Origin: Escherichia phage A51.2
Sequence record: ON286973
Strand: one strand, 5' to 3'
Length of the DNA stretch: 64,000 bases
Shown: positions 14,597-42,447 of the stretch, one piece after another
Position numbering within the stretch: position 1 is the first letter of the stretch
Layout of the letters: the number at the start of each line of letters is the position of its first letter
Translations under genes and position numbers: made by a program
Notes under the pieces: generated by a model
Database searches by the model: none
The model's input: only the letters and a program-made list of their open reading frames with translations
What the model was told of the DNA's origin: nothing

Positions 14597-14713
14597 ATGT
14601 CATCAGGTATTTATAAAATTTGCAAGTGTGGTTGTCGTTGCAATCTTCGTTGGTGCAAGGCACTGGACGATTTTATTTGGCATTGCCCTGAATGCGATGC
14701 GGAGTACTTATAA
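14597..14713 (+). CDS. small Cys-rich protein (38 aa, zinc-ribbon-like)
   Basis: Strong RBS AAGGAGGTG; MSSGIYKICKCGCRCNLRWCKALDDFIWHCPECDAEYL; below ORF-track cutoff. Confidence 0.35.
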   Translation: MSSGIYKICKCGCRCNLRWCKALDDFIWHCPECDAEYL

Positions 14714-14864
14714 GCATAAGGGGTCGAAATGCGGAAATCTATCAAGAAAATCAAGATAAAATTGTTAGCACTGAAGCGTAAGTATAAAAAGTTATACGGC
14801 TTCATCAAATGGACTTTTATAGGTTTATCTTGAATAGAAGCACATCACAGAAGAGAGGTTCCTT

Positions 14865-15101
14865 ATGATAGGTGTCTGTGTAAAAGCTAACAGATGGTTT
14901 ACATTCGGTAAGGATTACGAAATTATCTTTCATTCGGACAGAGCCACAACAGTAGAAAGCGATGATGGGTGCCACTGGTTCGTTAGTTACCATGGTGATG
15001 GGTATTATAGATCTACTGATTCCAGAGGGGAAGAAGCTGTTTTCTTGGATAGAGCTTATTGTGGGCCTGAATATCCTTACCTAAAAGAGGATAAGGAATG
15101 A
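14865..15101 (+). CDS. hypothetical protein
   Basis: 78-aa ORF, RBS AGAGAGG; stop overlaps nrdG start. Confidence 0.4.
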   Translation: MIGVCVKANRWFTFGKDYEIIFHSDRATTVESDDGCHWFVSYHGDGYYRSTDSRGEEAVFLDRAYCGPEYPYLKEDKE

Positions 15102-15571
15102 ATGTTGTTAATATTATAGAGTGTAGCATGGTTGACGGCCCAGGCATTAGGACAACGGTGTTCTGTTCTGGTTGCCCACATCACTGCGTCGGTTGCCAAA
15201 ACAAAAGTGTTTGGTCACCAGCTAAAGGGGAACCGTTAACAAATGACACTATTGAGAGTATACTTCACTCTATAGAGCCGAAACACATTACTGGCGTTAC
15301 ATTATGCGGTGGCGAACCTTTAGCGCCTTACAATATTGATGGTATGTACTCGATCATTCGCGCTATCCGTGAACACTTCGGCAACACAAAAACTATCTGG
15401 GTGTACACAGGGTATTTGTTTGAAGAAGTCCCCGATTACATTAAAGATAGTGTTGATTACATTATGGACGGTAAGTACGAAAAAGATAACCCCACCAAAA
15501 AACCCTTTAGAGGCAGTGATAACCAAAGAATGTTTAAAAAGGTAGCAGATGGTTGGGTTCAGGTTGACTAA
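15098..15571 (+). CDS. nrdG: anaerobic ribonucleotide reductase activating protein (radical SAM)
   Basis: CSGCPHHCVGC cluster (CxxxCxxC) near N-terminus, 157 aa. Confidence 0.85.
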   Translation: MNVVNIIECSMVDGPGIRTTVFCSGCPHHCVGCQNKSVWSPAKGEPLTNDTIESILHSIEPKHITGVTLCGGEPLAPYNIDGMYSIIRAIREHFGNTKTIWVYTGYLFEEVPDYIKDSVDYIMDGKYEKDNPTKKPFRGSDNQRMFKKVADGWVQVD

Positions 15572-15574
15572 TCG

Positions 15575-15604
15575 TTGACAAAGCTTTGTTAAGTCGGTTA
15601 TAAT
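15575..15604 (+). promoter_or_regulatory. sigma70-like promoter (TTGACA-18-TATAAT)
   Basis: Consensus hexamers immediately after nrdG stop. Confidence 0.55.
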
Positions 15605-15633
15605 TGTCGTAATGAAAGCAGAGGAGGTGCCAA

Positions 15634-15747
15634 ATGGCTAAAAAAGCCTTGAAGAAGGCGTACAAGAAAGAGATTGCGCTTGAGCTTAAGAAAAAACACA
15701 AGCGTGAAAAGAAACATCATGAAGATGAAGAGGGGGTGCAACAGTGA
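15634..15747 (+). CDS. small lysine-rich protein (37 aa)
   Basis: RBS GAGGAGG; MAKKALKKAYKKEIALELKKKHKREKKHHEDEEGVQQ; stop overlaps next start (GTGA). Confidence 0.3.
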   Translation: MAKKALKKAYKKEIALELKKKHKREKKHHEDEEGVQQ

Positions 15748-16094
15748 CACAAGAACGTATCGATTTGGCTAATAAGTTTGTAGATCTCATTTTGCCACGG
15801 TTAGTTACTCAACATGCAGATGCTATTTCTACTAATCTTGATGGCTTACGCCTAATGCTGAATCGCACAGATGACCCTCGTATTCGGGCTGATTTAGAAG
15901 CCTCTGCCAACAAACTGGAAAAGTTCTTGCAAGTAGACACGCAAGAAGCCTTGCACAAGATTATGGTGGAAGGTTTCTCTAAAGAATTTACCATTAAAGA
16001 GCTTAAGGAGCTGATCCACCAAGAAGAGATGAATATCCGAGTTCAGGCTGTTGCAAGCAGCATGGAAGCGGTTATTGAAAAACTGTTGCAGTAA
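15744..16094 (+). CDS. hypothetical protein
   Basis: 116-aa ORF, GTG start coupled to upstream small ORF. Confidence 0.4.
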   Translation: MTQERIDLANKFVDLILPRLVTQHADAISTNLDGLRLMLNRTDDPRIRADLEASANKLEKFLQVDTQEALHKIMVEGFSKEFTIKELKELIHQEEMNIRVQAVASSMEAVIEKLLQ

Positions 16095-16132
16095 AAGTAC
16101 TTGGCACATCTCAATCTGAAAGGAGTCCCAAC

Positions 16133-16921
16133 ATGGGTCGAGCTAAAGAAACAAAACGCATGCGTGATGAAGCTAGAGAGGCTCGCAAATCTGATCGCCT
16201 GCGTAAGGCTGCTGAGAAATTTGCTGACGAAAGAGAGCACACCGCTCCAGCTCTCCGACCAATGAATAAGAAGCAGCAAAAGTATCTTGATTATCTAGGG
16301 TCACGTAAGATTATTATTGTAAACGGTGTGTTTGGATCCGGTAAGACATTTATGGCATCTGCATATGCAGGTGATCTTCTGCGTAAGAACGAGATTGATA
16401 AGATCATTGTTGCACGTCCTTACGTCCAGACAGGAAAGACTTCAGGATTTAAACCCGGAAATGCAATGCAGAAACTGTGGCCCTATCTTCGAAGCATGAT
16501 GGACACGATTTGTCGTCGTGTTGGCAAAGGTGCTTTTACCGCAATGCTGGGAGACGGTCAGAACAGTCGTATCGAGATTTGTGAAGTTGAAAGCATTCGT
16601 GGTCGTAGTTTCGATGAGCGATGCTTTGTCCTGATTGACGAGGCACAGCAAACTAACCCTGAAGAAATGTTGTCAATTATCACAAGGATCTCTGATCAAG
16701 CCACCCTTGTAATTATGGGTGATAATAGCCAACGTGACATCCCTGGTAAATCTGGCCTCGCATGGGTGACGGATTTCTTTACTCGTCATCCAGATCCTGA
16801 GGTTGGAATGATTAGCTTTGATAGTCCAGACGATGTCGTTCGTTCCGGGTTGGGTCGTCAGATTGCACTCAATCTTATTGAAGATCGTGCAAATCATATT
16901 TGGACCCCTGTTTCCGAGTAA
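16133..16921 (+). CDS. phoH: PhoH-like ATPase
   Basis: Walker A GVFGSGKTFMA, Walker B FVLIDEAQQ, PhoH-like overall pattern; RBS AGGAG. Confidence 0.85.
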   Translation: MGRAKETKRMRDEAREARKSDRLRKAAEKFADEREHTAPALRPMNKKQQKYLDYLGSRKIIIVNGVFGSGKTFMASAYAGDLLRKNEIDKIIVARPYVQTGKTSGFKPGNAMQKLWPYLRSMMDTICRRVGKGAFTAMLGDGQNSRIEICEVESIRGRSFDERCFVLIDEAQQTNPEEMLSIITRISDQATLVIMGDNSQRDIPGKSGLAWVTDFFTRHPDPEVGMISFDSPDDVVRSGLGRQIALNLIEDRANHIWTPVSE

Positions 16922-16966
16922 TACAGAAGGGTGGTTATTCCACCCTTAAAATATCTAAAACAGTTG

Positions 16967-16995
16967 TTGACAAACAGGTAAGCTTTAGATATTAT
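16967..16995 (+). promoter_or_regulatory. sigma70-like promoter (TTGACA-17-TATTAT)
   Basis: Hexamers with 17-bp spacer after PhoH; preceded by hairpin GGGTGG..CCACCC. Confidence 0.55.
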
Positions 16996-17025
16996 CATCG
17001 GACAAAACAAGGAGAAGGAGATAGT

Positions 17026-17337
17026 ATGGCTACAATACAAGAGAGACTGAATAAAATATACTGCCTGTTCGTCTACAACGGTGAGACAATTTTGGCAAAT
17101 AAAGGATCCAAGAATGTGTGGATCAAGGACAGTGGTGGTAATATAATCAACTTAGCGTTGCTACGTGAGCGCCGACACAGATTCTTTATCGAGTCTCGAA
17201 TTATTGAAAGCAGCACCTGCTACAGAACAGGCGATAAAGTAATTGTTGACAATGATACGTGGTATGTGGTAGACTGGCAATCATTGAGTTGTGATGCTTC
17301 TGACAATCGTAAGTATTCCATAGTGATTGCTAAATAA
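17026..17337 (+). CDS. hypothetical protein
   Basis: ATG 17026 after AAGGAGAAGGAG, downstream of promoter. Confidence 0.45.
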   Translation: MATIQERLNKIYCLFVYNGETILANKGSKNVWIKDSGGNIINLALLRERRHRFFIESRIIESSTCYRTGDKVIVDNDTWYVVDWQSLSCDASDNRKYSIVIAK

Positions 17338-17397
17338 AGGTAAATGTGAATCAGGTTTAAATAAATAGCTTTCAACTTCCAATATTAAGGATTTCTC

Positions 17398-18444: not shown

Positions 18445-18456
18445 ACATTAATTCTA

Positions 18457-18479: not shown

Positions 18480-18495
18480 TGATCTGGAGATTTGC

Positions 18496-20018: not shown

Positions 20019-20252
20019 ATGAAAGTTAAATTTCTTACAGATTTAGGGTACCCTTCCTTGGTTGACTGTGTTGGTAAAATTGTGGAAGCAAAACGGCTAT
20101 CTGCAAACGAGAATGTTGTCCTGGTTAAAGGGAAGGATTTACTAGCTGCAGGTGCAGAGTCTGGCAGGATCTCTCCTGATTATATGTATTACCTATCTTT
20201 AAGTAATCTGCCAGAGCGAGGCGGTAAAGGCCTTGAAGTTGTGGAGGAGTGA
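20019..20252 (+). CDS. small acidic protein, VEVVEE-tail family member A
   Basis: RBS AGGAGG; MKVKFL...KGKDLLAAGA...LEVVEE. Confidence 0.5.
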   Translation: MKVKFLTDLGYPSLVDCVGKIVEAKRLSANENVVLVKGKDLLAAGAESGRISPDYMYYLSLSNLPERGGKGLEVVEE

Positions 20253-21040: not shown

Positions 21041-21176
21041 AACTATCTATACTGTTCTTAAAGAGATTGCGTTCTACGCAGATCTTAGCCAGGCACCTTT
21101 ATGGGAAAAGAGCATGTATTTAAAATGGTGCGTTAATTTAGGGAGACCTTCCAGTGTTTCAAGCCATGTTTATTGA
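21024..21176 (+). CDS. hypothetical small protein
   Basis: Internal ATG of ORF 20988..21176. Confidence 0.3.
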   Translation: METAPKTIYTVLKEIAFYADLSQAPLWEKSMYLKWCVNLGRPSSVSSHVY

Positions 21177-21259
21177 GATGCTATCTGGGATATTGTTACT
21201 GGTAGCCATCTTAGGTGGTGCAGTTCTGATGTATAACTATCTTGAAAAAGGAGACAGCA

Positions 21260-21445
21260 ATGGTAAAAAATAAATCTTTAGAGCAGGCTGAAAACCTTCT
21301 CCACGAGCTGGTAAAGGAGTGGAAAGTTGAATACTCAGATTTTAATGCACGAGAGGGTGAAGAATATTGGCCTACGGAGCGCTCAGAGGGCGAATGGTAT
21401 CAAGATTTTATAGAGTGGTTATATCAGACGTGCGATGAGGGGTGA
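21260..21445 (+). CDS. hypothetical protein
   Basis: ATG 21260 after AAGGAG. Confidence 0.4.
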   Translation: MVKNKSLEQAENLLHELVKEWKVEYSDFNAREGEEYWPTERSEGEWYQDFIEWLYQTCDEG

Positions 21446-22815: not shown

Positions 22816-23001
22816 ATGAAGCACTATTGCCTGTCTGGTAGAATGGGTGCAGATTGTGATTGGGTTTTCTTAAAACTTGTCAGCATTCGAGAGTTCATCC
22901 CAGAGGAAGAGCAAGAAAGCGAGCTGATGTCATGGATCAACCATTACGGTAACACTTTTCGGCATGTTAAGGTAGAAGAGTTGCCAAGCGAGGCTGATTG
23001 A
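22816..23001 (+). CDS. hypothetical protein
   Basis: RBS AGGAGG. Confidence 0.4.
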   Translation: MKHYCLSGRMGADCDWVFLKLVSIREFIPEEEQESELMSWINHYGNTFRHVKVEELPSEAD

Positions 23002-23096
23002 CTATGATTGCATCAATATTAACGTTTATGGGTGGCGTGGCATTCGGATTCATTGTTTGCCTGTTTATAGTGATTATGTCTATGCGAGGCTGAATT

Positions 23097-23395: not shown

Positions 23396-23677
23396 ATGAA
23401 AAAGATTAACAGTAGTGAAGTAGAGTTTAAACTTGTCGGAAAAGGCACTTACTGGGAAGTTCGTCAAAAGGTATATTTGTTCGGTCTTATTCCCTACTGG
23501 TCTAAATTCTACTGGGGAGCTAACGAGTTGGGAAGATACGCCACCAAATCAATGGCACTTATTGGTATAGCAGAGTACATTGCAGCCCGAGACAGGGTTG
23601 GAACCACTTATTACTACACTGCTGACGATATTCGTAACAGTGTTTACGTCCCACAACCACCTGATGGAGACCGTTGA
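23396..23677 (+). CDS. hypothetical protein
   Basis: ATG 23396 after AGAGGGAG. Confidence 0.4.
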   Translation: MKKINSSEVEFKLVGKGTYWEVRQKVYLFGLIPYWSKFYWGANELGRYATKSMALIGIAEYIAARDRVGTTYYYTADDIRNSVYVPQPPDGDR

Positions 23678-23901
23678 TGAAAGTTAAAGTTTTAGATTCA
23701 AGCTTCTATATTGGTCAGGAGCCTTTAGTAGGAAAAGTGTTTACTGCTGTCCCTAACGAAGATTACCCTGACCTTTTAAAAATAAAAGGAGCAGATCTTA
23801 TTGCCGCTGGTGCATCTCAGGAATGCTTTGACAGTCAGTGGACCTATAACTTTGCCCTAGGTGAGGATGTAGAGGTAGTGGAGGACGATCATGAAGGTTA
23901 A
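23677..23901 (+). CDS. small acidic protein, VEVVEE-tail family member B
   Basis: MKVKVLDS...KGADLIAAGA...DVEVVEDD. Confidence 0.5.
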   Translation: MKVKVLDSSFYIGQEPLVGKVFTAVPNEDYPDLLKIKGADLIAAGASQECFDSQWTYNFALGEDVEVVEDDHEG

Positions 23902-24145
23902 AATTCTTGATTCTAACGTCTACTTGGGACAATCCTTCCTGAATGGAAAGGTCGTTCCTGCGGTATACTTTGAAGGGTTGCCGTGGGATGATCCTGTGCG
24001 GCAACATCACAGTTATGTAGGCCACAACGTGGTGTTTATCTTGGGATCAGACCTGATCACCGCTGGTGCACCTGAATATTATTTCGGGGAAGAGTCCTAC
24101 TATGCCTTTGGGGTAGGGTCAGATGCAGATATTGTAGAGCTGTGA
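23891..24145 (+). CDS. small acidic protein, VEVVEE-tail family member C
   Basis: MKVKILDS...GSDLITAGA...DADIVEL; similar to B. Confidence 0.5.
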   Translation: MKVKILDSNVYLGQSFLNGKVVPAVYFEGLPWDDPVRQHHSYVGHNVVFILGSDLITAGAPEYYFGEESYYAFGVGSDADIVEL

Positions 24146-24157: not shown

Positions 24158-24556
24158 GTGAAAAATAAACTGTTTAAAGTTACAATGAAAATTCGCGGGG
24201 CTTGGAGCGTAAAGCAAGGGCGTATTCCAGAATTTGAGAAAGACTTCTACGTAGTCTCCACCTCGGAGGAGGCTGCATGCTGGCAGGCTGGCTATGCCTA
24301 TGCAAGAACCTGGTACGAAGGATACCAGACTGGGGGCTATGACGGAGAAATTATCAGCAAGGGTGTAGAAGAAATTAATGTGTTGACAAGTGAAAAAGTT
24401 TTTGTTATAGTGCATCCAGATTCCAGAGTGAAGCATTACTGGAATGCCAGAACAAAAACTTGGACACCGTTTGCAGATTCTGCTACGCCACTTTTAAACC
24501 AGAAAGCTCTTGACTCTGCCCCAAGTTATGGGGTTGTTGAAGAAAAGCTAAACTGA
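24158..24556 (+). CDS. hypothetical protein, paralogue of 26368..26763
   Basis: Shares HP[DH]S..YW..K.WTP motif with the 26368 gene; GTG start. Confidence 0.45.
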   Translation: MKNKLFKVTMKIRGAWSVKQGRIPEFEKDFYVVSTSEEAACWQAGYAYARTWYEGYQTGGYDGEIISKGVEEINVLTSEKVFVIVHPDSRVKHYWNARTKTWTPFADSATPLLNQKALDSAPSYGVVEEKLN

Positions 24557-24948: not shown

Positions 24949-25269
24949 ATGCAAATTGAAATCACTGGCAACAATGTAGAAATCACAGAAGGTATGGTAT
25001 CTTTTATTTCCCGCAAAATGTCCAAGCTGGAGCGTTTACATCCCTCTGTTAACTATGCACGTGTGAGTGTAAAAGTTGAAAATGATCACCAGGAAGTTAT
25101 GGCGTTCATTTTTGACAATTCTGGAAAAGAAGTTATTGCCAAGGCTAAAGGCAGTGATGCTTACGAGGCAACTGACCGTATGGTAGATGTTGCAGCACGT
25201 CAGCTGGCTAAATGCGGTGGAAAGAAAGGTAAGGGGAAAGGCAAAGTAAAGATTGACTTTGGAGAATGA
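24949..25269 (+). CDS. hpf: ribosome hibernation promoting factor / RaiA (YfiA) family protein
   Basis: MQIEITGNNVEITEGM...KLE...VKVE...DAYEATDRMVDVAARQLAK aligns closely with E. coli HPF/YfiA; basic Lys/Gly C-tail. Confidence 0.85.
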   Translation: MQIEITGNNVEITEGMVSFISRKMSKLERLHPSVNYARVSVKVENDHQEVMAFIFDNSGKEVIAKAKGSDAYEATDRMVDVAARQLAKCGGKKGKGKGKVKIDFGE

Positions 25270-25406
25270 GGTGCTACAATGGGTGTGATTAAGAAATTAG
25301 TCCCAAATGTAGAGATTGCATGCTTTGAAATTATGTTTGCAATCGCAGTTGTAGTTAATGTGTTAGGTTACGGCTATTAATATCAAATAATTGAGGAGAC
25401 CTCTAA

Positions 25407-25676
25407 ATGAAAATTAAATTATTCCAAACTGAGCTGGCAGACAAAAATTGTGGACTGGTTGAAGGCATGATTGTTGAAGCACAACCAGTGGACTATATGA
25501 AGGTGGTTCGTGATGCCCTAGGTGAAGGTTTTGATCTGATGGAGCCAGCTCTGCGAGAAGATGTTATCGAGATGGCTAAAAAGCACACACCTGAAGGTTT
25601 GGTGGTGTTTGTTGCACCGGGTAACGGAGAAGAGTTGATTGTAACTCCTGATGTGTATGAGATTGTAGAGGAATAA
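25407..25676 (+). CDS. small acidic protein, VEVVEE-tail family member D
   Basis: RBS GAGGAG; MKIKLF...C-terminus VYEIVEE. Confidence 0.5.
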   Translation: MKIKLFQTELADKNCGLVEGMIVEAQPVDYMKVVRDALGEGFDLMEPALREDVIEMAKKHTPEGLVVFVAPGNGEELIVTPDVYEIVEE

Positions 25677-25767: not shown

Positions 25768-26031
25768 ATGATTGTTTATTTTAAAACTTCAGGTGGATAC
25801 CCTGATTCTCAAAGCTTGATCGGAAAAACGTGCACAGCATACTCACCTCTTGATGAGGAGGTAAGCGATATTTTACGAAATATGTATCGGATTGACCCCC
25901 AAGAAGCCTTTGATCAAAACCTTGTATTTGTCAAGGGCTCAGATATGAAGTCTTTGGGAGCATTCCCTGAAGCAGATGATGATGCCGTTTATTCGTTCAT
26001 GACTCCTTTTGAAGCTATGGTTGTTGGGTGA
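25768..26031 (+). CDS. small acidic protein, VEVVEE-tail family member E
   Basis: RBS AGAGGTG; KGSDMKSLGA core; C-terminus FEAMVVG. Confidence 0.5.
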   Translation: MIVYFKTSGGYPDSQSLIGKTCTAYSPLDEEVSDILRNMYRIDPQEAFDQNLVFVKGSDMKSLGAFPEADDDAVYSFMTPFEAMVVG

Positions 26032-26035: not shown

Positions 26036-26368
26036 ATGAAAGTACGCTTTATTGGTGAAACAATTCCTGTGCATCTCCGGTCGCCTGAGGATTCTGCAGA
26101 TCTTGCATCTCAAAAGGCGAGAGGTTATGATAAGAAAGTAACCTCAACCGATGTAGTGCTTGAGGCTACTAGTCTACCTGACCCTGCTGCATTCTTTAAT
26201 CATTATGGGTACTATTTCAGCAATCTGATGAATATCGGTGAGCTTGTGTTTATTAGTGGTGGAGAAATTGTTAGCAAGCTTGGCGGCGATCCGGATGTCT
26301 TTCATGAAACCTGTCCTTTTGCATTTGTGGTGGGTTCAGATGTGGAAGTTATTGAGGAGGTGCGGTAA
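26036..26368 (+). CDS. small acidic protein, VEVVEE-tail family member F
   Basis: MKVRFIGE...C-terminus SDVEVIEEVR; ATG 26036. Confidence 0.5.
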   Translation: MKVRFIGETIPVHLRSPEDSADLASQKARGYDKKVTSTDVVLEATSLPDPAAFFNHYGYYFSNLMNIGELVFISGGEIVSKLGGDPDVFHETCPFAFVVGSDVEVIEEVR

Positions 26369-26763
26369 TGGTAAGCCTATACCGTGTTGAGTATAGCTCA
26401 GATACTGTATACAACGTAAGAAGCAAAGATCGCAGCGACAGAGTGCAAGAAATGTATGTTCTTGCCGACAGTCCGTTATCTGCAGCGTTCAAGGCAGGGG
26501 CTCTTGCATCTCGTTGGAAATTTGAAGGCGGATCTTTCTATGAAGAAACCCTTGAAGATTCTGTTGTTATTTCTTCTGTAGAGGTTTCAGATGACTACGA
26601 AGGGAAAAAGTTCGTAATGCGGCACCCACACAGCAACATTGCGTACTACTGGGATGTTCTGAACAACGAGTGGACCCCAGATCTTCAGAAGGCTACTGTG
26701 CTAACACCGTTTTTGGCAGATAAGTTCCCACCAGAAGGTAATTTATCCGCACTGTTTCAGTAA
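26368..26763 (+). CDS. hypothetical protein, paralogue of 24158..24556
   Basis: RBS GGAGGTG; shares HPHS..YW..WTP motif. Confidence 0.5.
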   Translation: MVSLYRVEYSSDTVYNVRSKDRSDRVQEMYVLADSPLSAAFKAGALASRWKFEGGSFYEETLEDSVVISSVEVSDDYEGKKFVMRHPHSNIAYYWDVLNNEWTPDLQKATVLTPFLADKFPPEGNLSALFQ

Positions 26764-27780: not shown

Positions 27781-28067
27781 TGAAAGATTTGGTTAAGATT
27801 AAGATTAAAGATACCAATGGAGAACTCAGCCATTTTGGAATTAAGGATGGTGACGAGCTGATCGCACACTTGCCTACTAAGGAGGTTGTAAGCAAAGCAG
27901 TTGCCGGAGAAGAAGCTGCAATGCAGGCTGCAGGTGTGGATGAAAACTATGTAGCTATGTGCATGTGCCGAGATCAGGTTGTTCTGTATAAAGCGTATCG
28001 ACCAAACGGAGCCACGGAGTGGCTTGTATTCCGACCCGAAGGATATGAAATCTTAGAGGCACTATGA
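27780..28067 (+). CDS. hypothetical protein
   Basis: 95-aa ORF. Confidence 0.45.
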   Translation: MKDLVKIKIKDTNGELSHFGIKDGDELIAHLPTKEVVSKAVAGEEAAMQAAGVDENYVAMCMCRDQVVLYKAYRPNGATEWLVFRPEGYEILEAL

Positions 28068-28156
28068 TAAATCTTGCCAAGGTTGCAACGGCACTGTTAA
28101 TTATTTGCTGGTCTGTAACCTTAACACTGTGTCTTGTATTTCAGTGAGGTGCTTGT

Positions 28157-30099: not shown

Positions 30100-30131
30100 C
30101 CACACATCGTTTGGAGAATATGGGATACACA

Positions 30132-30221
30132 ATGAAAACATTGTCAGAGGTTTTGGTGGTGATCCTGATGATCATTACGTCCATAGTGGCTGTTGCCGGA
30201 ATACTCACGGGTGGAACATGA
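30132..30221 (+). CDS. small hydrophobic peptide (29 aa)
   Basis: MKTLSEVLVVILMIITSIVAVAGILTGGT downstream of promoter; below ORF cutoff. Confidence 0.3.
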   Translation: MKTLSEVLVVILMIITSIVAVAGILTGGT

Positions 30222-30430
30222 TAAACACACATGCATCTGAAGAGACATCCAAAGGAGTGACTATATGTCCCTTGACTGAGCCAGTGCAAGAGGAAAACTT
30301 CGATTCTGAAGATTCTTCATCTTCGCTCCAGGTAGATCCTGAGGCTGATGACCTGACGTGGGAAGACATCGTAGATATCTGGTTCTCTATTATGCCTGAG
30401 CACGAAGAGTTCAGGGGTGGTAGACTATGA
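30218..30430 (+). CDS. hypothetical acidic protein
   Basis: ATG overlapping upstream stop (ATGA); part of ORF-track 30017..30430. Confidence 0.3.
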   Translation: MINTHASEETSKGVTICPLTEPVQEENFDSEDSSSSLQVDPEADDLTWEDIVDIWFSIMPEHEEFRGGRL

Positions 30431-30551
30431 AGCACCGAGCCCACACAGGTTCCTCATGCTGAAGCATGGCCTGAAGAGGCAAACGTGCATAATTCCTGTG
30501 CATCGGAACGTATAAAACCCTGTTCACACTCTCATTTCCAGAGGAGATTTC

Positions 30552-30767
30552 ATGAAGATAGAAATATTTGGTGGAGCTGACAACACTCGTGGCCTGATTT
30601 ACCTTGAATTCGATGAATCATACCTGCCAGAGGTGTTAAATATAGACTCTGTTGCTGATGCTTTGGGAGTAAGTCCTAAAGATCTCTACTCTGGTGCTGA
30701 GATTGATGGTTGGGAGGAGACCATGAACATTGATTTCAGTGAAGTAGAGGATGAACCGCTGGACTGA
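30552..30767 (+). CDS. small acidic protein (MKIEIFG..., C-terminus EVEDEPLD)
   Basis: RBS AGAGGAGA; last plus-strand gene before the non-coding region. Confidence 0.45.
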   Translation: MKIEIFGGADNTRGLIYLEFDESYLPEVLNIDSVADALGVSPKDLYSGAEIDGWEETMNIDFSEVEDEPLD

Positions 30768-32183
30768 CGCACAATTAGCTGCCCGGCCAAAGTGCTGGAA
30801 GCACCTATAACACATCTTTCAACTAAATTTCCCACCACCACAATCACTTACCTTCCACACATGACTGTTTGCTTGTTTAGTGAGCAGTCATGCCTTGACA
30901 TTCTTGCCTATCCTGATAAAATTAAGTTCTTCTCTTTTCTTTTACCGAGTAATTCGGGTTTTCTGTTCTCTTCGGTTTGAAGGGGTATAGAGATACACCT
31001 GAGTGAACAGGGTGAACAACCGAACCATTAGCTATGGCATTAGCATGGCGAAGCGGACGGGTGACGAAAGAGGGGCCGGAGGACACCAGTCACTGCCATA
31101 TGATATATGGGTGATAACCTGAAGAGTCTGAATAAGTGTTTAAGTACCAGTCAGAGGAAAAGGTGAATGGTAGCCGAAGGGGGGAGGGGGGTTTCTTGTA
31201 TCTTTAATTTGTATATTATGTATACACTTGTAAACCAATCTAATCTGAATCTGTTTACCACACAAAGCGGATAGAGACAAATATTGCCTATTAAACTTGA
31301 ATTATTTATAGAAAATACCACAACACCCCTTAAGTCTTTGATTTTACACACAAATCCTACAGATATTCAACCTCCATATTTAACATACTTGTAACATATT
31401 CCATACTCTACCTGCCTGATCAATTTCCCCAACTACATTCTCATATTTCCCCTGTCTGTACTACCCTGCCCCACCGGGAGTCCCGTCATATCTGGCTTTC
31501 CAGCAAATATCACACCCACAAATATCATGCCTGAAGAGGGTTTCATCCCATAATACCTGCCTTGCCTGAAGAGCGCTTCATACACCACGTAAATTTTTTA
31601 ATTGACCTCCCCTGCCCCGCCGGAGAGGTTGGCTTTTCCCACACAGACCTGGAGAGTCAGCCAGAAATATCTGAATAGGCCCAGTTCTACCACGATTTTG
31701 ACCTGACCTACAGGAGCGCTGCCAGGCGGACGAAATGGGAATACTTCTCATTCTTATAACAATTCTCAAATATCGAGGCAGTGAGGCAAATTAATAGGCC
31801 AGGCCGTTCACACAGTGGCACAACATTTGCAACCTATCTTGTGGGGTGAATGAGAATACCTATCATTGTGAGAACCATTATCATTACGGGCAATTTAACA
31901 TAATACCCATTATGCGCACCACTGGCGATCCATACAGGGATTGATAACACGAGTTACAGTTTACGCATATAACAATCATATTTCTTACTATTTGTGTGGG
32001 ATATAGTTAGCAGCCGATAGATTAGATATTGACCTGTGGACTTCCAACCGTCTAGACGTCTAAGCGCCCACACAACAAGGCTTATACATACATTACTGAA
32101 TGTAAACAGGGCCGCAAAAATGCTACCATACCAGTTTGTAAATTTTTCATGCAGCACTTGACAAAGAGGAGGAAAACTTGTCT

Positions 32184-32277
32184 GACACAATGTCACACAA
32201 TATGACACAATAACGGCTGTTACCATTCCATATCTCACTGTTTACGCATAGACTGTTTACGCCTGGATAGTTTACAC
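32184..32277. repeat. short direct repeats: GACACAAT x3 (32184-32211) and TGTTTACGC x2 plus GTTTACAC (32239-32277)
   Basis: Read directly from sequence; non-coding. Confidence 0.8.
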
Positions 32278-32395
32278 AGATATGATAAGCCATGCCATTC
32301 GTTTGCATGAAAACAATTAACAAGATAACAATCGACAAGTTAATAATCTTTCGCTGGCTATGCCAGGTGACTAGGTCACCCCTTCGGGCGTTCCT

Positions 32396-32550
32396 ATGAC
32401 ATAATATAAAAGCAGGGCAACTATTAGCAGATCTATAGTTGCCTTGCTTGTTATGTCATGATTAACTAAATACAAGGCAACTATGATCTGATTAATAGTT
32501 TGCAGACAAACTATCACGGGGGTGATGGTTACTGCTTTTATATTATGTCG
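32396..32550. repeat. inverted-repeat-bounded cassette with GGCAACTAT iterons in alternating orientation
   Basis: ATGACATAATATAAAAGCAG (32396-32415) vs its reverse complement 32532-32550 (19/20); GGCAACTAT at 32416, 32476; ATAGTTGCC at 32435; ATAGTTTGC at 32495. Confidence 0.75.
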
Positions 32551-33195
32551 CGACTCCGTCGCGCCATGCCATTCGTTTGCATAGTTGCCTTATTGTTATG
32601 AATAAAACAATTGCATTGTTAATGATTTCTTATCTTTCTATTAGTCATCTAATGATTTCAGTCAGGATAGTAATGTACAGTAAACATTAGACGACTAAAG
32701 ATTTCTCTGTTTATGATAACCTATCGTGACAATTTCGGACTGTTTACGAAAAATGTTGACACCTGAGCTGATTTATGTTATGCAGTTTACACGAATAATT
32801 ATTTTATACAGGTATTGACTATTCTGTTATTCTATGGTTGGAATAAATACTTAGCAGACTATAGAATGGTGAGCGTACGTAAATTCTGAGATCTGGCGGC
32901 TATAGTTATACTCGATTTTTCACGTAGAACGCGCTTTTGTGGTTATGTAAGTGTATGACTTATAAGAATTTTTATTTGTTGACAAGATATTGAAGATGTG
33001 CATCAGGTTAAAATTTGTGCAATAGCGGCATTACGTGCAATTTTGAGGGAGAAAACGGGTAAAAATGGCCCTGCTACCACACAATGAAAAATTATGCAAT
33101 AGTTATTTTATATGTATGTTTGTACAGTGTGTGGGATTGATGGCTAGTCAATTATTCCACTTGCCAGGCTGGGCCGTTTGTGGTAGGGGGAAGAG

Positions 33196-33225
33196 CAGAC
33201 AAAAAGAAAGGGGCCTAAGCCCCTT
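33196..33225 (-). terminator. intrinsic terminator for minus-strand small-gene cluster
   Basis: Hairpin AAGGGGC-TTAG-GCCCCTT followed by U-run on minus strand, just 3' of gene 33244..33663. Confidence 0.6.
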
Positions 33226-33243
33226 GATAATTCAGTTAAAAAA

Positions 33244-33663
33244 TTATAATGATTCGTATATTTCATAGATTCGATTTGCCAGGTCGTTACGATAACGAAA
33301 TTTTTCATCACGTTTGATCATCAGATCCTTAAATCCATATTCTTTAAGCACTTCATTAACTTTATAGCGGCATACCTTCATATTATCCTGAGCGTCACCG
33401 ATAAACTTGTTGCTATGATGCATGGCTTTGATCTCTTCCTCCAGGACCAGGGCAACTATGCGGACCGGATCAAGCTGATAGGCGGTAACATCCATGCGGC
33501 ATTGCAAACGGCTTTTTACGTCTGCCACCGGATATACTGCAACCTCTTCCCCGTCAACATTGACAATAATTAGTTTACCATCAATTTCAAAACCTTTCGC
33601 CGCCGGACCGTGACAAAAAGCGTTATCAAAGCTATATGCCGGATTATTAGATTTAATGTTCAT
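33244..33663 (-). CDS. hypothetical protein
   Basis: 139-aa ORF, RBS GAGGT. Confidence 0.5.
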   Translation of the reverse strand: MNIKSNNPAYSFDNAFCHGPAAKGFEIDGKLIIVNVDGEEVAVYPVADVKSRLQCRMDVTAYQLDPVRIVALVLEEEIKAMHHSNKFIGDAQDNMKVCRYKVNEVLKEYGFKDLMIKRDEKFRYRNDLANRIYEIYESL

Positions 33664-33712
33664 GGTGTTTTTACCTCTTAGTTAATTTTCTTACAACTTC
33701 CCTTCAAAAAAG

Positions 33713-33741
33713 AATATAGCAAAACTGCCGATCCTTGTCAA
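33713..33741 (-). promoter_or_regulatory. sigma70-like promoter (TTGACA-17-TATATT)
   Basis: Consensus hexamers on minus strand upstream of 33663 start. Confidence 0.55.
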
Positions 33742-33809
33742 CCAAGGATAGCATAATTTTTTATGTGATCAAGGGGCTTTATTGCCCCCCTGATCGTGCA
33801 ACTTGTTTA

Positions 33810-34073
33810 TTATTTGTTGCTCATCCAGTTTTCCCAGGCTGCCTGATAATCTGCCTCACTGCGGCGGATCTCTTCTTGTTCTTCAAGGCGGATCTCTTCT
33901 TCCAGGTACCCCAGTATATCGGCTTTTTTGGTCTGGCGTAGCATCCAGTCATCTTTTTTGCGGGTAAAGATCTTATAAGCTTTCTCGCAAACCTCTTTTT
34001 TGCTACCTTTCTGGACTTCAAGAACACGATAAGCCATATATTGAACTAGTTTGAGCTGGTCAAGACGTTTCAT
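33810..34073 (-). CDS. hypothetical basic protein
   Basis: Internal ATG with RBS AAGAGG chosen; ORF-track start 34157 would overlap next gene. Confidence 0.4.
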   Translation of the reverse strand: MKRLDQLKLVQYMAYRVLEVQKGSKKEVCEKAYKIFTRKKDDWMLRQTKKADILGYLEEEIRLEEQEEIRRSEADYQAAWENWMSNK

Positions 34074-34134
34074 GATGTTTACCTCTTTATGCGGTTCTGG
34101 TTTGGTGGGCCTTTTGGCCCGTGTCATTATCTTA

Positions 34135-34407
34135 TTACTTATGGCGGCAGAATTCAAGCGTTTTTAATTGATAATCTTCCTCAGCCTGGAGTACTACCGC
34201 CTCGATCATTTCGTTGGCATTGTTAAAGCCATAACCTTTAGCGAACTCATCCGCGCCACCTTCGTGATCATGTTCTGCGTTCATCGCTTCCACAAAATGG
34301 AATTCCAAATTGTTGAGGTAGGGGCTTGATGTTCCGTCCTCTTTTTCGATGAGATCCCAAATAGCATTAAAACGTGATTCGACTTCTTGATTAATCCAGC
34401 TTGACAT
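34135..34407 (-). CDS. hypothetical acidic protein
   Basis: 90-aa ORF, RBS AGGAGAGAGG. Confidence 0.45.
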   Translation of the reverse strand: MSSWINQEVESRFNAIWDLIEKEDGTSSPYLNNLEFHFVEAMNAEHDHEGGADEFAKGYGFNNANEMIEAVVLQAEEDYQLKTLEFCRHK

Positions 34408-35140: not shown

Positions 35141-35275
35141 TTAAAACAAGGTGCCAACCGTTTCCAATAGATCACTGACCATCAGGACAATACTGATCAG
35201 CACATGCCTAACCATAAGGGGAAAGAGCGCCAGCGATCCCGCCACAATCCCCAAGGTGATGATTATCTTTCTCAT
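35141..35275 (-). CDS. small hydrophobic membrane peptide (44 aa)
   Basis: MRKIIITLGIVAGSLALFPLMV...; below ORF cutoff. Confidence 0.3.
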   Translation of the reverse strand: MRKIIITLGIVAGSLALFPLMVRHVLISIVLMVSDLLETVGTLF

Positions 35276-35879: not shown

Positions 35880-35984
35880 TTAACCGATACCGTGGGAAGA
35901 TAGGATCATGTTAGCCATAGTTGCAACCCATCCAACCGATAATGCCAGGCCAACTACTACAACCGTGAAAATTTTCTCTAACAT
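35880..35984 (-). CDS. small hydrophobic membrane peptide (34 aa)
   Basis: RBS GAGGGTAG; MLEKIFTVVVVGLALSVGWVATMANMILSSHGIG. Confidence 0.3.
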   Translation of the reverse strand: MLEKIFTVVVVGLALSVGWVATMANMILSSHGIG

Positions 35985-36341: not shown

Positions 36342-36521
36342 TTAACGATAATCATCATATGCTTTATTGACCTGGCGAATATAACATTCAAAAGCTAGAT
36401 CAATAGATTTATATTCACGGATATATTCACCATAGGAAACCACATACATTTCTATAGCTTCCTCATATGCGAGGAGAATAGAATCTAAGCCTACGATCTC
36501 AGTCTTTGCAATAATAGCCAT
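36342..36521 (-). CDS. hypothetical protein (59 aa)
   Basis: RBS AAGAGGA; below ORF cutoff. Confidence 0.35.
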   Translation of the reverse strand: MAIIAKTEIVGLDSILLAYEEAIEMYVVSYGEYIREYKSIDLAFECYIRQVNKAYDDYR

Positions 36522-36571
36522 GATTTTTATCCTCTTTGTGGTTGGTGGGGCTTGTTGCCCCTTTGATTTAT

Positions 36572-36600
36572 ATTCTACAGTCTTATAAGGTCATGTCAAC
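36572..36600 (-). promoter_or_regulatory. sigma70-like promoter (TTGACA-17-TAGAAT) plus leader hairpin GGGGCAACAAGCCCC
   Basis: Hexamers on minus strand; hairpin at 36547-36561 then CA-rich leader and RBS. Confidence 0.5.
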
Positions 36601-36829
36601 TATTTTCAAAAAATTTTTCTGCTGTAATATTTTTCCCGGTAGGGTTCGCTACTTTCAAAATTTTATCATGCACTGGACGCCCAAAAGAATAAGCGCCGTA
36701 CACAGTGCACCAATAATCGCCGTCAGGCTGTACTATTACAGCCGCATAGGGTACGCCTTTTTCGTTTTTGCTGACAAAATAGATCACGTTGCCATTAATA
36801 GCCTCGGCGCGTTTAATTTGTTCCATCAT
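36596..36829 (-). CDS. hypothetical protein
   Basis: 77-aa ORF. Confidence 0.45.
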   Translation of the reverse strand: MMEQIKRAEAINGNVIYFVSKNEKGVPYAAVIVQPDGDYWCTVYGAYSFGRPVHDKILKVANPTGKNITAEKFFENS

Positions 36830-39632: not shown

Positions 39633-39683
39633 GATGTTTTCCTCTTTGTTTTGTGTGGGGCAAGTCATCTCGCCCCTTGAGTT

Positions 39684-39713
39684 TTAATATAGCAGGTTTT
39701 TAAATTATTGCAA
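39684..39713 (-). promoter_or_regulatory. promoter (TTGCAA-18-TATTAA) plus leader hairpin GGGGCGAGATGACTTGCCCC
   Basis: Minus-strand hexamers; hairpin 39657-39676. Confidence 0.45.
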
Positions 39714-39721
39714 CACTTTAT

Positions 39722-40345
39722 TTATGAAAAACTCATCTCACCATATTCATCTACATCAAACCGCCAATCATTGGCTTCAATAAGGCCGATCAGGTTTTCG
39801 GTAGTAAACTGTTCAAGATAGGCCTCCTCAAGGTCTACATAAACCTTGCGGGATAGCTCCCGTACCGTCTCGGTGATCAGCTCTTCCAGATCTTCCACTT
39901 TATTTTCTTGTTTTGCGGTCAGATCTAGCCAGGTAGTATCAATATATCCGCTTACAGTGTTTTCATGGCTGTAATGGCTGTACTTGTCGCGTTCAACACT
40001 GGCTGATAGTTCGCCATCGTGCATTGTGCCGAACAAGTGACGAATTGATCGGAACTTGGTCAGGGCCTTGACTTTACGCAAGAATTTCTCTAAGTCTACA
40101 TTTTCAGCACTAATTGACGCGCCATCGCCTTGACACCAAAAGCCGGACCAATGTACATCGGTATCTTCAAGGCCGTACTCTGGAAAAACCTGTTCTTTAT
40201 AGTATTCAATTACACTTTCTGCAAAAAAGTTATCCCCGCTGTGTTCTTCTCTTTCGCGGACCATTTCAATAGCTTTTTCTTTTTGTTCGTCGGTCAGCAC
40301 GTCGAAAGATAAATTGTAACCTGTGGTAATGTTAACGGTGGTCAT
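39722..40345 (-). CDS. hypothetical acidic protein (207 aa)
   Basis: Largest ORF of the small-gene cluster; no recognised motif. Confidence 0.5.
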   Translation of the reverse strand: MTTVNITTGYNLSFDVLTDEQKEKAIEMVREREEHSGDNFFAESVIEYYKEQVFPEYGLEDTDVHWSGFWCQGDGASISAENVDLEKFLRKVKALTKFRSIRHLFGTMHDGELSASVERDKYSHYSHENTVSGYIDTTWLDLTAKQENKVEDLEELITETVRELSRKVYVDLEEAYLEQFTTENLIGLIEANDWRFDVDEYGEMSFS

Positions 40346-40373
40346 GATATTTTCTCCTATTTTCTTTGTTAGT

Positions 40374-40430
40374 GGCGGGAAAACTTCCCGCCTGTGTGTT
40401 TAAGTATACTTATTGAGATTTACTTGTCAA
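40374..40430 (-). promoter_or_regulatory. promoter-hairpin module: TTGACA-16-TATACT-TAAACAC then GGCGGGAAGTTTTCCCGCC
   Basis: One of three near-identical modules (with 42239-42292 and 42918-42974). Confidence 0.55.
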
Positions 40431-40680
40431 CACTATTTTTTAAATTATTGTGGCGTAAAATGTTCAAGATCTCTTCAACGTCATCAACACGGCGGCAATT
40501 TTTAAACGCTACCAGTTGCCCCAGTATTTTAATCACTGGACGGCCTTGCCAGTGCCCTTGGAGAAAGCGAGCTTTAACTTTATCGGTGGAACTATCACGC
40601 CACCAAATGGCCTTGTTGTTGCAGTAGTAAAAATTATTCAGGACAACATCAACTTTATCAAAATTTTTTAATTTACGCAT
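40420..40680 (-). CDS. hypothetical protein
   Basis: 86-aa ORF. Confidence 0.45.
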   Translation of the reverse strand: MRKLKNFDKVDVVLNNFYYCNNKAIWWRDSSTDKVKARFLQGHWQGRPVIKILGQLVAFKNCRRVDDVEEILNILRHNNLKNSVDK

Positions 40681-40880
40681 GGCGTTTACTCCTTTCTCTC
40701 TTTGATGTGGTTAGTATAGCTAACCTGTTTAAGATGTCAAGCTTTAAATAAAATCACTATCAATGATATTTTTAACGCCATAAAACGGCCCTAAGCGATG
40801 TTTTCAGGTTAAAGGGGGCGATTGCATAGGTGGGGCCTTTTTGGCGCTTACAGGGCCAACCGGGGGCGCTATTCGTAGGA

Positions 40881-40912
40881 TAGAAATAAAAAGCCCCGCA
40901 CAATGGCGGGGC
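40881..40912 (-). terminator. intrinsic terminator (GCCCCGCCATTGTGCGGGGC plus U-run)
   Basis: Hairpin followed on minus strand by TTTTTATTTC. Confidence 0.6.
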
Positions 40913-40920
40913 GTTGGTTG

Positions 40921-41118
40921 TTATTTGCCTTTGTGGCGGTATCGTTCCGCCTGTCGTTCACGTTCCAAAAGCAGGCCCGGTAATTTGCGATCATAATGAT
41001 TCCGCCAGATCTTCCCAAATCTTTTTGGCTTATTCAGTTTATTGTTGCGCTGGCGGCGTTCCGGCAGCTCTTCGGAAGCATGAGATCGCTTTACAATCTT
41101 CTCAAAATTAATCTTCAT
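40921..41118 (-). CDS. hypothetical basic protein
   Basis: ATG 41118 after AAGGGGGG; Arg/Lys-rich. Confidence 0.4.
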   Translation of the reverse strand: MKINFEKIVKRSHASEELPERRQRNNKLNKPKRFGKIWRNHYDRKLPGLLLERERQAERYRHKGK

Positions 41119-41461
41119 ATATTCCCCCCTTGCTAACTTCAATATTGGCCTGAATAGCCCGGATACGGCGCTTTATAACTTCCTGATCTGTGTGATCGTA
41201 TCCCCAAAAGTCTACGATTTTTGCGCCTCCAGCCTTTAGGCGGTATAGTGTTTCTTGCATCTTGTAAGCCGGGATCGGTCGCGGTGTTACCTGGTCGCCC
41301 TTCTCATTCTTGTACTTGATAATATAGTCTTCATTGTCGTTGAATACCCAAAACGGGTATTCTGTAAGGGCGTTGCTATCTTTTTCGTTTTTAGATTGGA
41401 TCTTGTTTACAATTAAAGCCGTAGCAATAGCGCCAATAATAAAACTTGCCCCGCTGATCAT
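41108..41461 (-). CDS. membrane-anchored protein (N-terminal TM)
   Basis: ATG 41461 after AAAGGAGA; MISGASFIIGAIATALIV. Confidence 0.45.
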   Translation of the reverse strand: MISGASFIIGAIATALIVNKIQSKNEKDSNALTEYPFWVFNDNEDYIIKYKNEKGDQVTPRPIPAYKMQETLYRLKAGGAKIVDFWGYDHTDQEVIKRRIRAIQANIEVSKGGIYED

Positions 41462-41536
41462 GTACTTTCTCCTTTCATTGTATTGATAAACTATCTTTAT
41501 AGATGGCCCTGCTACCAGGACCACCGAAAAAACAGC

Positions 41537-41782
41537 TTATTTGACGATACCGACAAAACAGATCCCGCCTTCCCCTATATAGGCAATATCGGTAATTTTA
41601 TAATTTGTCAAGATCCGCGTGTTCAGATCATTAATAAAATCGGTCATCGCGTTGGTGTAGTTGTCTTCCGTGTCTAAGGCATAATCCCAGGTGTAAACCT
41701 TTTTACGTCCGAAGCCTTTTACCATGATACGGGCGCTTTTGGTGTTGGTAGGGGCATAATATTTGGTGATTAGTGCTGCCAT
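41537..41782 (-). CDS. hypothetical protein
   Basis: 81-aa ORF, RBS AGAGGAG. Confidence 0.45.
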   Translation of the reverse strand: MAALITKYYAPTNTKSARIMVKGFGRKKVYTWDYALDTEDNYTNAMTDFINDLNTRILTNYKITDIAYIGEGGICFVGIVK

Positions 41783-41825
41783 GGTTTTAACTCCTCTGAA
41801 TTAGTTCAGTGTTAACAGTATAAAG

Positions 41826-41869
41826 TTTACTTTATTGATGGCCCTGGAGTCAAGGCCATCTAAAAATAA
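41826..41869. repeat. 44-bp intergenic repeat copy 2
   Basis: TTTACTTTATTGATGGCCCTGGAGTCAAGGCCATCTAAAAATAA, directly 3' of gene 41872..42213. Confidence 0.85.
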
Positions 41870-41871
41870 TC

Positions 41872-42213
41872 TTACTCGTTTTCTTCCAGCTCCGCAAGCT
41901 CTTCTTTTGCTTCTTCTAACTCTGTCTGTAGTTCCTGGTATTCTTCATCTTCCTCAATATCCAGGCTGTCGATGTAGTCGCTAAATCCGCAGCGGTAAGC
42001 GATAGGATCTAGCTCCTTGAGGATACGCGACGGAAGAAAAGAAATGTTTCCGATCATAATTTCGCCGTAGATCTCGTCTAACCATTCATCATAGTTTTCG
42101 TCGTACTTGTCCTCGTCGATTTCAAAGTTATCGATCTTGTTCTCAAGGTCTGCGATCTGTTTTTTCAGCGCGGCGATCTGCATAGCTTTTTCTGCGGCGG
42201 TCATAGTAGTCAT
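41872..42213 (-). CDS. hypothetical acidic coiled-coil protein
   Basis: 113-aa ORF. Confidence 0.45.
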   Translation of the reverse strand: MTTMTAAEKAMQIAALKKQIADLENKIDNFEIDEDKYDENYDEWLDEIYGEIMIGNISFLPSRILKELDPIAYRCGFSDYIDSLDIEEDEEYQELQTELEEAKEELAELEENE

Positions 42214-42238
42214 GGTGTTTTCTCCTTTTGTGTGCTCT

Positions 42239-42292
42239 GGGAAGTTTTCCCGTTTACGTGTTTAAGTATATCGATCTAAGTTAGTTTGTCAA
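42239..42292 (-). promoter_or_regulatory. promoter-hairpin module: TTGACA-16-TATACT-TAAACAC then GGGAAAACTTCCC
   Basis: Same architecture as 40374-40430. Confidence 0.55.
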
Positions 42293-42447
42293 TTAAAAAT
42301 TTAAGAAAAATTTTGCAAAACTGTTAGCGCTACTCATTAACATTTGCGCCAGGATGTAACCGACAACGCAAACGATAATAGTTACCTTTGTGTATTGGCG
42401 TGTAGTGCTCATCTTAAAGCCCCCTTTTTTCGCTTAGTTGAGATTAG

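Follow-up and report, generated by a model that had tools for sequence, protein, structure and literature searches.

The 64,000-nucleotide (nt) stretch of Escherichia phage A51.2 DNA analysed here (sequence record ON286973; hereafter the window) contains ten micro open reading frames (micro-ORFs) of 29 to 59 amino acids (aa) between positions 14597 and 42412. With a probability of roughly 0.8, these are genuine small protein-coding genes within arrays of small, mostly accessory genes of Vequintavirus. The probability is high for eight of them and moderate for the two that begin at 23004 and 25279. Selection acts on the frame, length and amino acid sequence across Vequintavirus, and for three of the ORFs also in Phapecoctavirus, Justusliebigvirus or jumbo coliphages. 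The window itself derives from a Vequintavirus, an rV5-like E. coli myovirus. In a megablast search of its 14-26 kb and 30-43 kb blocks against 50,697 phage records, every top match is a Vequintavirus (126 and 271 records matched, respectively), and the best match is Escherichia phage inoa, which is 98% identical over the 14-26 kb block and 94% over the 30-43 kb block.

An initial annotation of the sequence had listed these ORFs, and all ten are present where it placed them, with ATG starts and the expected lengths. All occupy gaps between longer genes on the local coding strand. They are named here by their lower coordinate and listed below with their state in relatives and, where available, the ratio of non-synonymous to synonymous differences per site (pN/pS). 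TM denotes a predicted transmembrane segment and SD a Shine-Dalgarno motif.

14597..14713, plus strand: 38 aa, located between nrdD and nrdG, probably metal-binding; 38 aa in 10/10 relatives with all seven Cys invariant, pN/pS 0.09-0.10.
15634..15747, plus strand: 37 aa, Lys-rich N-terminus and acidic C-terminus, GTGA overlap with the 116-aa gene downstream; constant at 37 aa (11/11 relatives), pN/pS 0.06.
23004..23093, plus strand: 29 aa, single TM, on a 93-nt presence/absence cassette; intact in 7/7 distinct alleles, pN/pS 0.24.
25279..25380, plus strand: 33 aa, hydrophobic, between two RaiA/HPF-like genes, the least constrained of the ten; found in 117 records, pN/pS 0.31 from only 17 substitutions.
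30132..30221, plus strand: 29 aa, single TM, ATGA overlap with the 70-aa gene 30218..30430, a start at 30120 being the alternative; length 28-29 aa in 12/13 relatives, one of them at 73% nt identity, pN/pS 0.22-0.30.
35141..35275, minus strand: 44 aa, predicted membrane peptide, no SD, presence/absence cassette; 44 aa in 12/12 loci carrying the ORF, including those at 67-73% nt identity, pN/pS 0.7-0.8.
35880..35984, minus strand: 34 aa, single TM, C-terminus conserved but N-terminus of two allele types; the same length in 14/14 relatives, Justusliebigvirus and Phapecoctavirus among them, pN/pS 0.39.
36342..36521, minus strand: 59 aa, soluble, four beta-strands and a C-terminal helix; 59 aa in 16/16 relatives, including a 348-kb jumbo-phage contig.
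38477..38596, minus strand: 39 aa, basic N-terminus and one TM, ATGA overlap with the gene upstream, a terminator following directly; length 39-40 aa in 12/12 relatives (in-frame indel), pN/pS 0.16.
42293..42412, minus strand: 39 aa, single TM, promoter-like sites on both flanks; length 38-39 aa in 11/11 relatives (in-frame indel), pN/pS 0.16.

The screen was built on a gene map of conserved ORFs of at least 60 aa and considered every ATG-initiated ORF of at least 25 aa with at least 80% of its length in a gap. Twenty small ORFs from the same gaps, lying on the antisense strand or in an ORF-free stretch at 30.8-33.2 kb, served as controls. Homologous regions were taken from 13 relatives at about 67-100% nucleotide identity, and orthologous peptides were compared in 13-17. 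The relatives, for which GenBank phage records were used, comprise inoa, PMBT16, Murica, Mangalyan, five ‘Campylobacter phage’ records that carry no annotation, Aya, Justusliebigvirus alia and Phapecoctavirus Schickermooser, together with IMG/VR contigs retrieved by two anchor proteins (five loci). Four alleles of 23004 and five metagenomic contigs were added later.

Conservation in related phages, the check that the initial annotation had named, reveals preserved frames under purifying selection. Start, frame and length are kept even at 67-75% nucleotide identity (35141, 35880 and 36342). Eight of the ten ORFs are intact in every distinct ortholog, compared with two of the 20 controls (p = 3e-4); the other two are intact in 12/13 (30132) and 9/11 (25279). 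In the called frame, nine of the ORFs have Nei-Gojobori pN/pS values of 0.06-0.39, against 0.01-0.40 for 66 accepted genes of at least 60 aa and 0.7-1.7 for the control ORFs. Values in the other frames are 0.5-8; the antisense frame with shared wobble positions is the exception, through a known artefact. Antisense ORFs sharing wobble positions with real genes also score low, and gap location and ORF intactness were therefore added as criteria and pN/pS was dropped as the sole one. When neutral drift to the observed divergence is simulated, ORF survival per lineage is 2-7% for 35141, 3.5% for 35880 and 4-5% for 36342.

Start signals point in the same direction. An SD-like motif, defined as at least 4 nt at a spacing of 3-11 nt, accompanies nine of the ten ORFs and one of the 20 controls (Fisher p = 7e-6). 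The good ribosome-binding sites initially ascribed to the whole set are found in seven members: they are excellent in 14597 (AAGGAGGT) and 15634 (AGGAGG) and good in 25279, 35880, 36342, 38477 and 42293. The description does not fit the remaining three. The sites of 23004 (GAGG at -10) and 30132 (with an alternative ATG possible at 30120) are weak or badly spaced, and 35141 has no SD, its ATG lying at a TAA-cc-ATG junction where translation would restart 2 nt past the upstream stop.

These comparisons address the possibility that the micro-ORFs are chance open frames in spacers, over-annotated by permissive callers, with hydrophobicity that merely reflects T-rich sequence. Short ORFs are indeed plentiful (393 of at least 25 aa in 31 kb), PMBT16 and Mangalyan annotate many tiny ORFs at 30.8-33.2 kb that are broken in relatives, 25279 has a nonsense codon in Mangalyan, and 23004 offers few informative substitutions. 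Chance is nevertheless a very improbable source of the frame-specific excess of synonymous changes, the exact lengths retained at 67-75% nt identity, the in-frame indels, and the enrichment in SD motifs and intactness over control ORFs from the same gaps.

Several points weigh against the reading of all ten as genes. The relatives are close and non-independent, and summed pairwise counts reuse shared changes, so that pN/pS values are not independent observations. 35141, at pN/pS 0.7-0.8, is loosely constrained beyond its hydrophobicity and C-terminal motif. 23004 is nearly invariant and provides little variation, with about five conservative non-synonymous and four synonymous events once the most divergent alleles are included. 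In 25279, a GAG>TAG change produces the nonsense codon of Mangalyan, and the nucleotide sequence of the 3′ half hardly varies, possibly owing to a non-coding constraint. The placement of 14597 between nrdD and nrdG is conserved within one phage subfamily only, where synteny is high anyway. Pfam and NCBIfam searches gave no match above threshold for any peptide and no family of known function. The literature on Vequintavirus yielded no transcriptomic, Ribo-seq, proteomic or functional data for these genes, and the mass spectrometry of rV5 was limited to virion proteins (PMC3606486).

The ORF at 25279 probably does represent a gene, though one that the phage can spare. In D# it has lost its start codon and has a new ATG at codon 3 instead, two codons further on. 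The genes on both sides of it (24949-25676) are annotated in relatives as RaiA/HPF-like (‘sigma-54 modulation factor’, ribosome-associated translation inhibitor).

Several of the micro-ORFs had been described as translationally coupled to their neighbours, and tight junctions are present in five (15634, 23004, 30132, 35141 and 38477). Four-nucleotide overlaps join 15634 (GTGA) and 30132 (ATGA) to the downstream gene and 38477 (ATGA) to the upstream gene, while gaps of 2-3 nt separate 23004 from its neighbours on both sides and 35141 from the upstream gene. Such overlaps and short junctions would also be expected if the ORFs were translated but their peptides irrelevant, either as leader or upstream ORFs serving the downstream gene (15634, 30132, 23004, 35141 and, in Murica-type genomes, 14597) or as DNA kept for RNA structure or promoters. 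The stop of the Murica 14597 homolog overlaps the nrdG start, the repeat flanking 23004 holds the SD of the next gene, and promoter-like sites abut several ORFs. This explanation is unlikely, since pN/pS values of 0.06-0.3 argue that the amino acid sequence itself is selected. Moreover, the seven Cys of 14597 are invariant across diverged forms despite altered spacing, the charge pattern of the Lys-rich peptide is kept after extensive sequence change, and 36342, 42293 and 35880 are not coupled to any neighbour.

Most of the predicted products are hydrophobic. All seven peptides first described as hydrophobic and single-TM (23004, 25279, 30132, 35141, 35880, 38477 and 42293) are of this type, having one hydrophobic stretch of at least 17 residues with a mean Kyte-Doolittle (KD) value above 1.6; their 17-residue means are 2.35-2.97. 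They are candidate single-pass helices that would insert in the inner membrane. In 38477, the strongly basic N-terminus suggests an N-in orientation by the positive-inside rule. When the micro-peptides are compared with one another, they are not paralogs. By analogy with characterised bacterial small membrane proteins, they may act by binding larger membrane proteins of the host or the phage. As individual relatives have lost, replaced or disrupted several of them, they would be of use under some conditions and not essential.

One of these is 23004, which is carried by about 93/126 genomes and lies on a clean 93-nt indel (22999-23096 versus Murica ~9590-9605) with a 10-nt direct repeat, GCGAGGCTGA, on its flanks. 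Both the upstream gene and 23004 end in this repeat, which also provides the SD for whichever gene comes next. This arrangement suggests a mechanism by which a micro-gene could be gained or lost with its neighbours undisturbed. Murica, A147 and A135 likewise lack 35141 and have a short spacer with an SD in its place; where the ORF is present, its coupling takes the form TAA-cc-ATG in Vequintavirus and ATGA in Phapecoctavirus (72-73% nt identity). The two allele types of 35880 share the C-terminus ATM(A/S)NMILSS(H/N)GIG. More broadly, and with a low probability, the region could serve as a store of single-TM ‘micro-gene cassettes’ that are exchanged, entering and leaving through recombination at short direct repeats bearing the SD of the next gene. 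That several genes are dispensable and exchangeable fits accessory host-interaction functions.

Regulatory signals around the minus-strand ORFs are dense. The minus-strand block contains 32 sigma70-type promoter matches at 11/12 positions, versus 20.9 +/- 4.5 expected. Promoter-like sites lie directly 3′ of the 42293 and 36342 stops and also upstream of 36342, 35880 (36060-36033) and 42293 (42475-42446), the site at 42292-42265 serving the gene that follows 42293. A strong terminator hairpin (38472-38453) stands immediately after 38477. This layout is that expected, from sequence, of compact genes transcribed by the host polymerase. The block would be transcribed by host sigma70 RNA polymerase from many near-consensus promoters, and its expression would hence be early.

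Small single-TM phage proteins with roles in lysis or exclusion exist, such as T4 RI, Imm and Sp and lambda S107, and the window peptides likewise have one TM and short charged flanks. The chance that they are lysis-timing (holin, antiholin or spanin-like) or superinfection-exclusion factors is nevertheless slim. The promoter context suggests expression of the host-polymerase, early type rather than late expression, and several peptides are missing from otherwise viable relatives. The endolysin (‘lysozyme R’, mapped via PMBT16) lies about 17 kb upstream of 14597, with no micro-ORF nearby, and Pfam, NCBIfam and the PHROG functional categories revealed no similarity to any lysis (holin, spanin) or exclusion family. 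The role in lysis timing raised by the initial annotation is unlikely because the endolysin falls outside the window and no lysis or exclusion family matches. All the roles it proposed, host takeover and superinfection exclusion as well as lysis timing, are generic.

Besides the repeat-flanked micro-gene cassettes, the only lead of some interest is the nrdD-Cys-peptide-nrdG module. The 14597 peptide is found in 121 phage records, all rV5-like, and always between nrdD and nrdG. In the window it is surrounded by a variable 310-aa ORF, the 34-aa ORF 14729 and a 78-aa gene. In Murica-type genomes, its homolog has its own sigma70-like promoter (TTGACA-N17-TATTAT), an AGGAGG and a stop that overlaps the nrdG start (ATGA). 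An exhaustive phmmer search of 1.8 billion representatives recovered only two diverged forms, of 41 and 54 aa, which keep all seven Cys and the motif ‘NLRWC...LDDFIWHCPxCDAEYL’ with changed spacing. In the contigs carrying these forms, the peptide gene again lies between those for NrdD(Gly_radical) and NrdG(Radical_SAM), and in 4/5 it overlaps nrdG by 4 nt. Two large repeat proteins in the phmmer output (P0037 and P0042) are spurious and have no Cys pattern. The search also recovered a metagenomic protein of 62 aa (P0041), in which residues 1-20 of the Cys-rich peptide are joined to the last 42 residues encoded by the 78-aa gene (window 14597-15101). It is a naturally occurring deletion variant that no longer has an intact Cys-rich peptide.

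The designation of 14597 as a Cys-rich zinc-ribbon peptide survives in its first half, with seven invariant Cys in 38 aa; the zinc ribbon itself is putative, the window copy having a single CxxC and the fold matches being non-significant. The Cys residues of the window copy are arranged as CxCxCxC, one lone Cys and CPEC, and the diverged homologs have CxxCxCxC. The single-sequence AlphaFold2 (AF2) model has short beta-hairpins at a mean predicted local distance difference test score (pLDDT) of 71.5, low to moderate. A Foldseek search of this 38-aa model against the PDB returned nothing significant, the matches at E > 1 all being RING/PHD/FYVE-type Zn fingers. The peptide thus shares with small Cys-rich zinc fingers (zinc ribbon; RING/PHD/FYVE cross-brace) a CPxC knuckle and the short beta-hairpins of the AF2 model, but the window copy has one CxxC only and no significant structural or sequence match. 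A zinc ribbon is plausible on the model, and the peptide is probably metal-binding. A detached version of the C-terminal Zn site of NrdD is ruled out; NrdD keeps its own CLKC...CPAC and the likeness is limited to ‘CPxC’. Comparison of 14597 with NrdD and NrdG of the window gave no significant similarity, and no Pfam NRDD or Radical_SAM match was found. PHROG 20137 is labelled ‘ribonucleotide reductase’ and inoa labels the peptide ‘putative anaerobic RNR’ (ribonucleotide reductase); the PHROG label is based on neighbourhood and not on homology.

Translational coupling to nrdG would have the seven-Cys peptide made together with the NrdG activase, as a metal-binding partner or co-factor of the anaerobic RNR module. 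The preferred hypothesis, a small metal-binding partner of the NrdG activase, is tentative and has a modest chance at best. Its more specific form is doubtful, namely that 14597 is an unrecognised metallo-subunit of the phage class III RNR, co-translated with NrdG and needed for metal or cluster loading, for reduction or for NrdD docking. The nrdD-peptide-nrdG order gives a concrete hypothesis for a small accessory factor of the phage anaerobic enzyme. Between nrdD and the Cys-rich ORF, the 310-aa ORF (13612-14544) contains repeated ‘...CPEHG...GCPxC’ modules. Most relatives lack this ORF, their alignments beginning at window ~14585. In Mangalyan and metagenomic contigs, nrdD is split by HNH endonuclease genes, and the nrd region looks like a hotspot for mobile insertions.

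The two other products are soluble. A 41-aa positional ortholog of 15634, located by synteny in diverged contigs, shares the basic-then-acidic layout and an AY-KE...LE-K motif, and has the same 4-nt overlap with a downstream gene of 116-133 aa. The 37-aa basic/acidic peptide would work with this overlapped, coiled-coil-like gene. The 59-aa protein encoded by 36342 is confidently predicted to adopt a fold of four strands and a helix that is common to many uncharacterised phage proteins. It may represent a small, widespread phage domain of AP2/WGR-like sheet-plus-helix shape. Compared with beta-sheet-plus-helix domains of the AP2, WGR or integrase arm-binding type, it has 6-9% identity and no Pfam AP2 match. 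Its net charge of -5 makes it acidic and therefore counts against simple DNA binding. The gene has nucleotide matches of about 75% in the jumbo coliphages slurp01, phAPEC6 and EC.P1, and next to it (36342-36829) the 77-aa gene 36596..36829 has its match in a T7-like Kayfunavirus record. Unrelated coliphage lineages appear, from these matches, to exchange individual small genes.

The micro-ORFs had been reported as unannotated, which is correct only with respect to the 60-aa cutoff of the ORF track. Coding sequences for them exist in PMBT16 (10/10), Murica (6/10, 30132 being gp132) and inoa (5/10). Nine of the ten peptides match a dedicated PHROG over the whole profile (E = 1e-19 to 7e-39; PHROGs 20137, 7670, 15151, 34195, 16005, 14631, 9374, 13629 and 16391). 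Individually, 14597 corresponds to 20137, 15634 to 7670, 25279 to 15151, 30132 to 34195, 35141 to 16005, 35880 to 14631, 38477 to 13629 and 42293 to 16391. In the PHROG search, 23004 has no family of its own and gave a weak partial match only (E = 0.004); it is not annotated in most of the genomes that carry it, including rV5 (NC_011041). 35141 is rarely called, with 3 clusters among 5.8 billion proteins. Annotation by itself is no evidence of a gene, because the same permissive records (PMBT16 and Mangalyan) also annotate the broken ORFs of the 30.8-33.2 kb stretch.

The initial list, in which all ten entries are real, is incomplete. Three further conserved micro-ORFs satisfy the screen:

21166..21273, plus strand: 35 aa, single TM (KD 2.57); intact in 9/9 distinct orthologs, pN/pS 0.12, annotated in PMBT16.
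28064..28147, plus strand: 27 aa, single TM (KD 2.52), ATGA overlap with the upstream gene; intact in 6/6 distinct orthologs, pN/pS 0.13.
14729..14833, plus strand: 34 aa, net charge +12, 15 nt 3′ of the Cys-rich ORF; also 34 aa in a diverged contig (L027), annotated in PMBT16 and Mangalyan.

Just beyond 14597-42412, two more small minus-strand ORFs (44533-44755; 52 and 32 aa) passed the conservation screen, with only three loci covering them.

These genes sit in two convergent blocks. The plus-strand block extends to ~30.8 kb and contains nrdA/B, nrdD, nrdG, phoH, clpP and dam, followed by dozens of small genes; minus-strand genes run from ~33.2 kb onward. The rV5 genome paper describes ‘88 mainly small ORFs’ in the corresponding region, a 2.6-kb stretch without ORFs and 15 rV5 proteins with TM domains (PMC3606486). 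Within the plus-strand block, two paralog groups of hypothetical genes encoding 74-131 aa are present between 20019 and 26763 (blastp E down to 1.6e-14), one consisting of 23677..23901, 23891..24145, 26036..26368, 20019..20252 and 25768..26031 and the other of 24185..24556 and 26368..26763. From sequence similarity, this indicates a local gene-family expansion.

Between the blocks, a stretch of about 2.4 kb (30770-33240) has no conserved ORF, its small ORFs being broken in relatives, and corresponds to the ‘non-coding’ box of the rV5 paper. Scans of it for tRNAs and against Rfam were negative. It contains 3-4 exact copies of an iteron-like motif, (A)CTGTTTACG, plus degenerate copies; the whole window holds four copies, all within this stretch, against 1.07 expected. 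Nested inverted repeats, including an 18-nt perfect pair, are located at 32398-32599. The stretch is possibly an origin or regulatory region.

Among the records that match the window, about 20 entitled ‘UNVERIFIED Campylobacter phage’ (GenBank MG0656xx, labelled host Campylobacter jejuni) are 94-100% identical to the rV5-like coliphage region. Their host labels look doubtful.

The main value of these findings concerns annotation quality. A 60-aa cutoff hides about 13 real genes in 28 kb, including at least nine membrane peptides, and 23004 is missing from most deposited rV5-like genomes, the type phage included. The phage group is used in biocontrol and therapy, and within it these genes are candidates for a role in host interaction. 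Current understanding is unchanged, as conserved small ORFs of unknown function are expected in the early regions of large lytic phages.

The closest known counterparts are the annotated hypothetical small proteins of rV5-like phages (PMBT16, inoa, Murica and BASEL phages), which have the same lengths and the same genomic positions. There is no substantive difference from them; the window has its own allele combination, and 23004 is without a dedicated PHROG. The micro-ORFs already figure in public annotations and in PHROG families, as proteins of unknown function, and rV5 has been described before as having arrays of small genes. More distantly, T4 Imm, Sp and RI and the T7 gp0.x/1.x class are small early proteins of T-even and T7-type phages. 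No homology to them was found for the window peptides; Murica annotates a neighbouring gene as ‘T7 gp1.1-like’, and the early genes of these phages share with the window an organization in arrays of very small genes behind host-type promoters. AcrZ, MgrB, MgtS, KdpF and CydX are bacterial small inner-membrane regulatory proteins. The window peptides differ from them in being phage-encoded and often dispensable and have no sequence similarity to them. The likeness lies in size (29-49 aa), in a lone hydrophobic helix between short charged flanks, and in a position in short slots beside or overlapping other genes.

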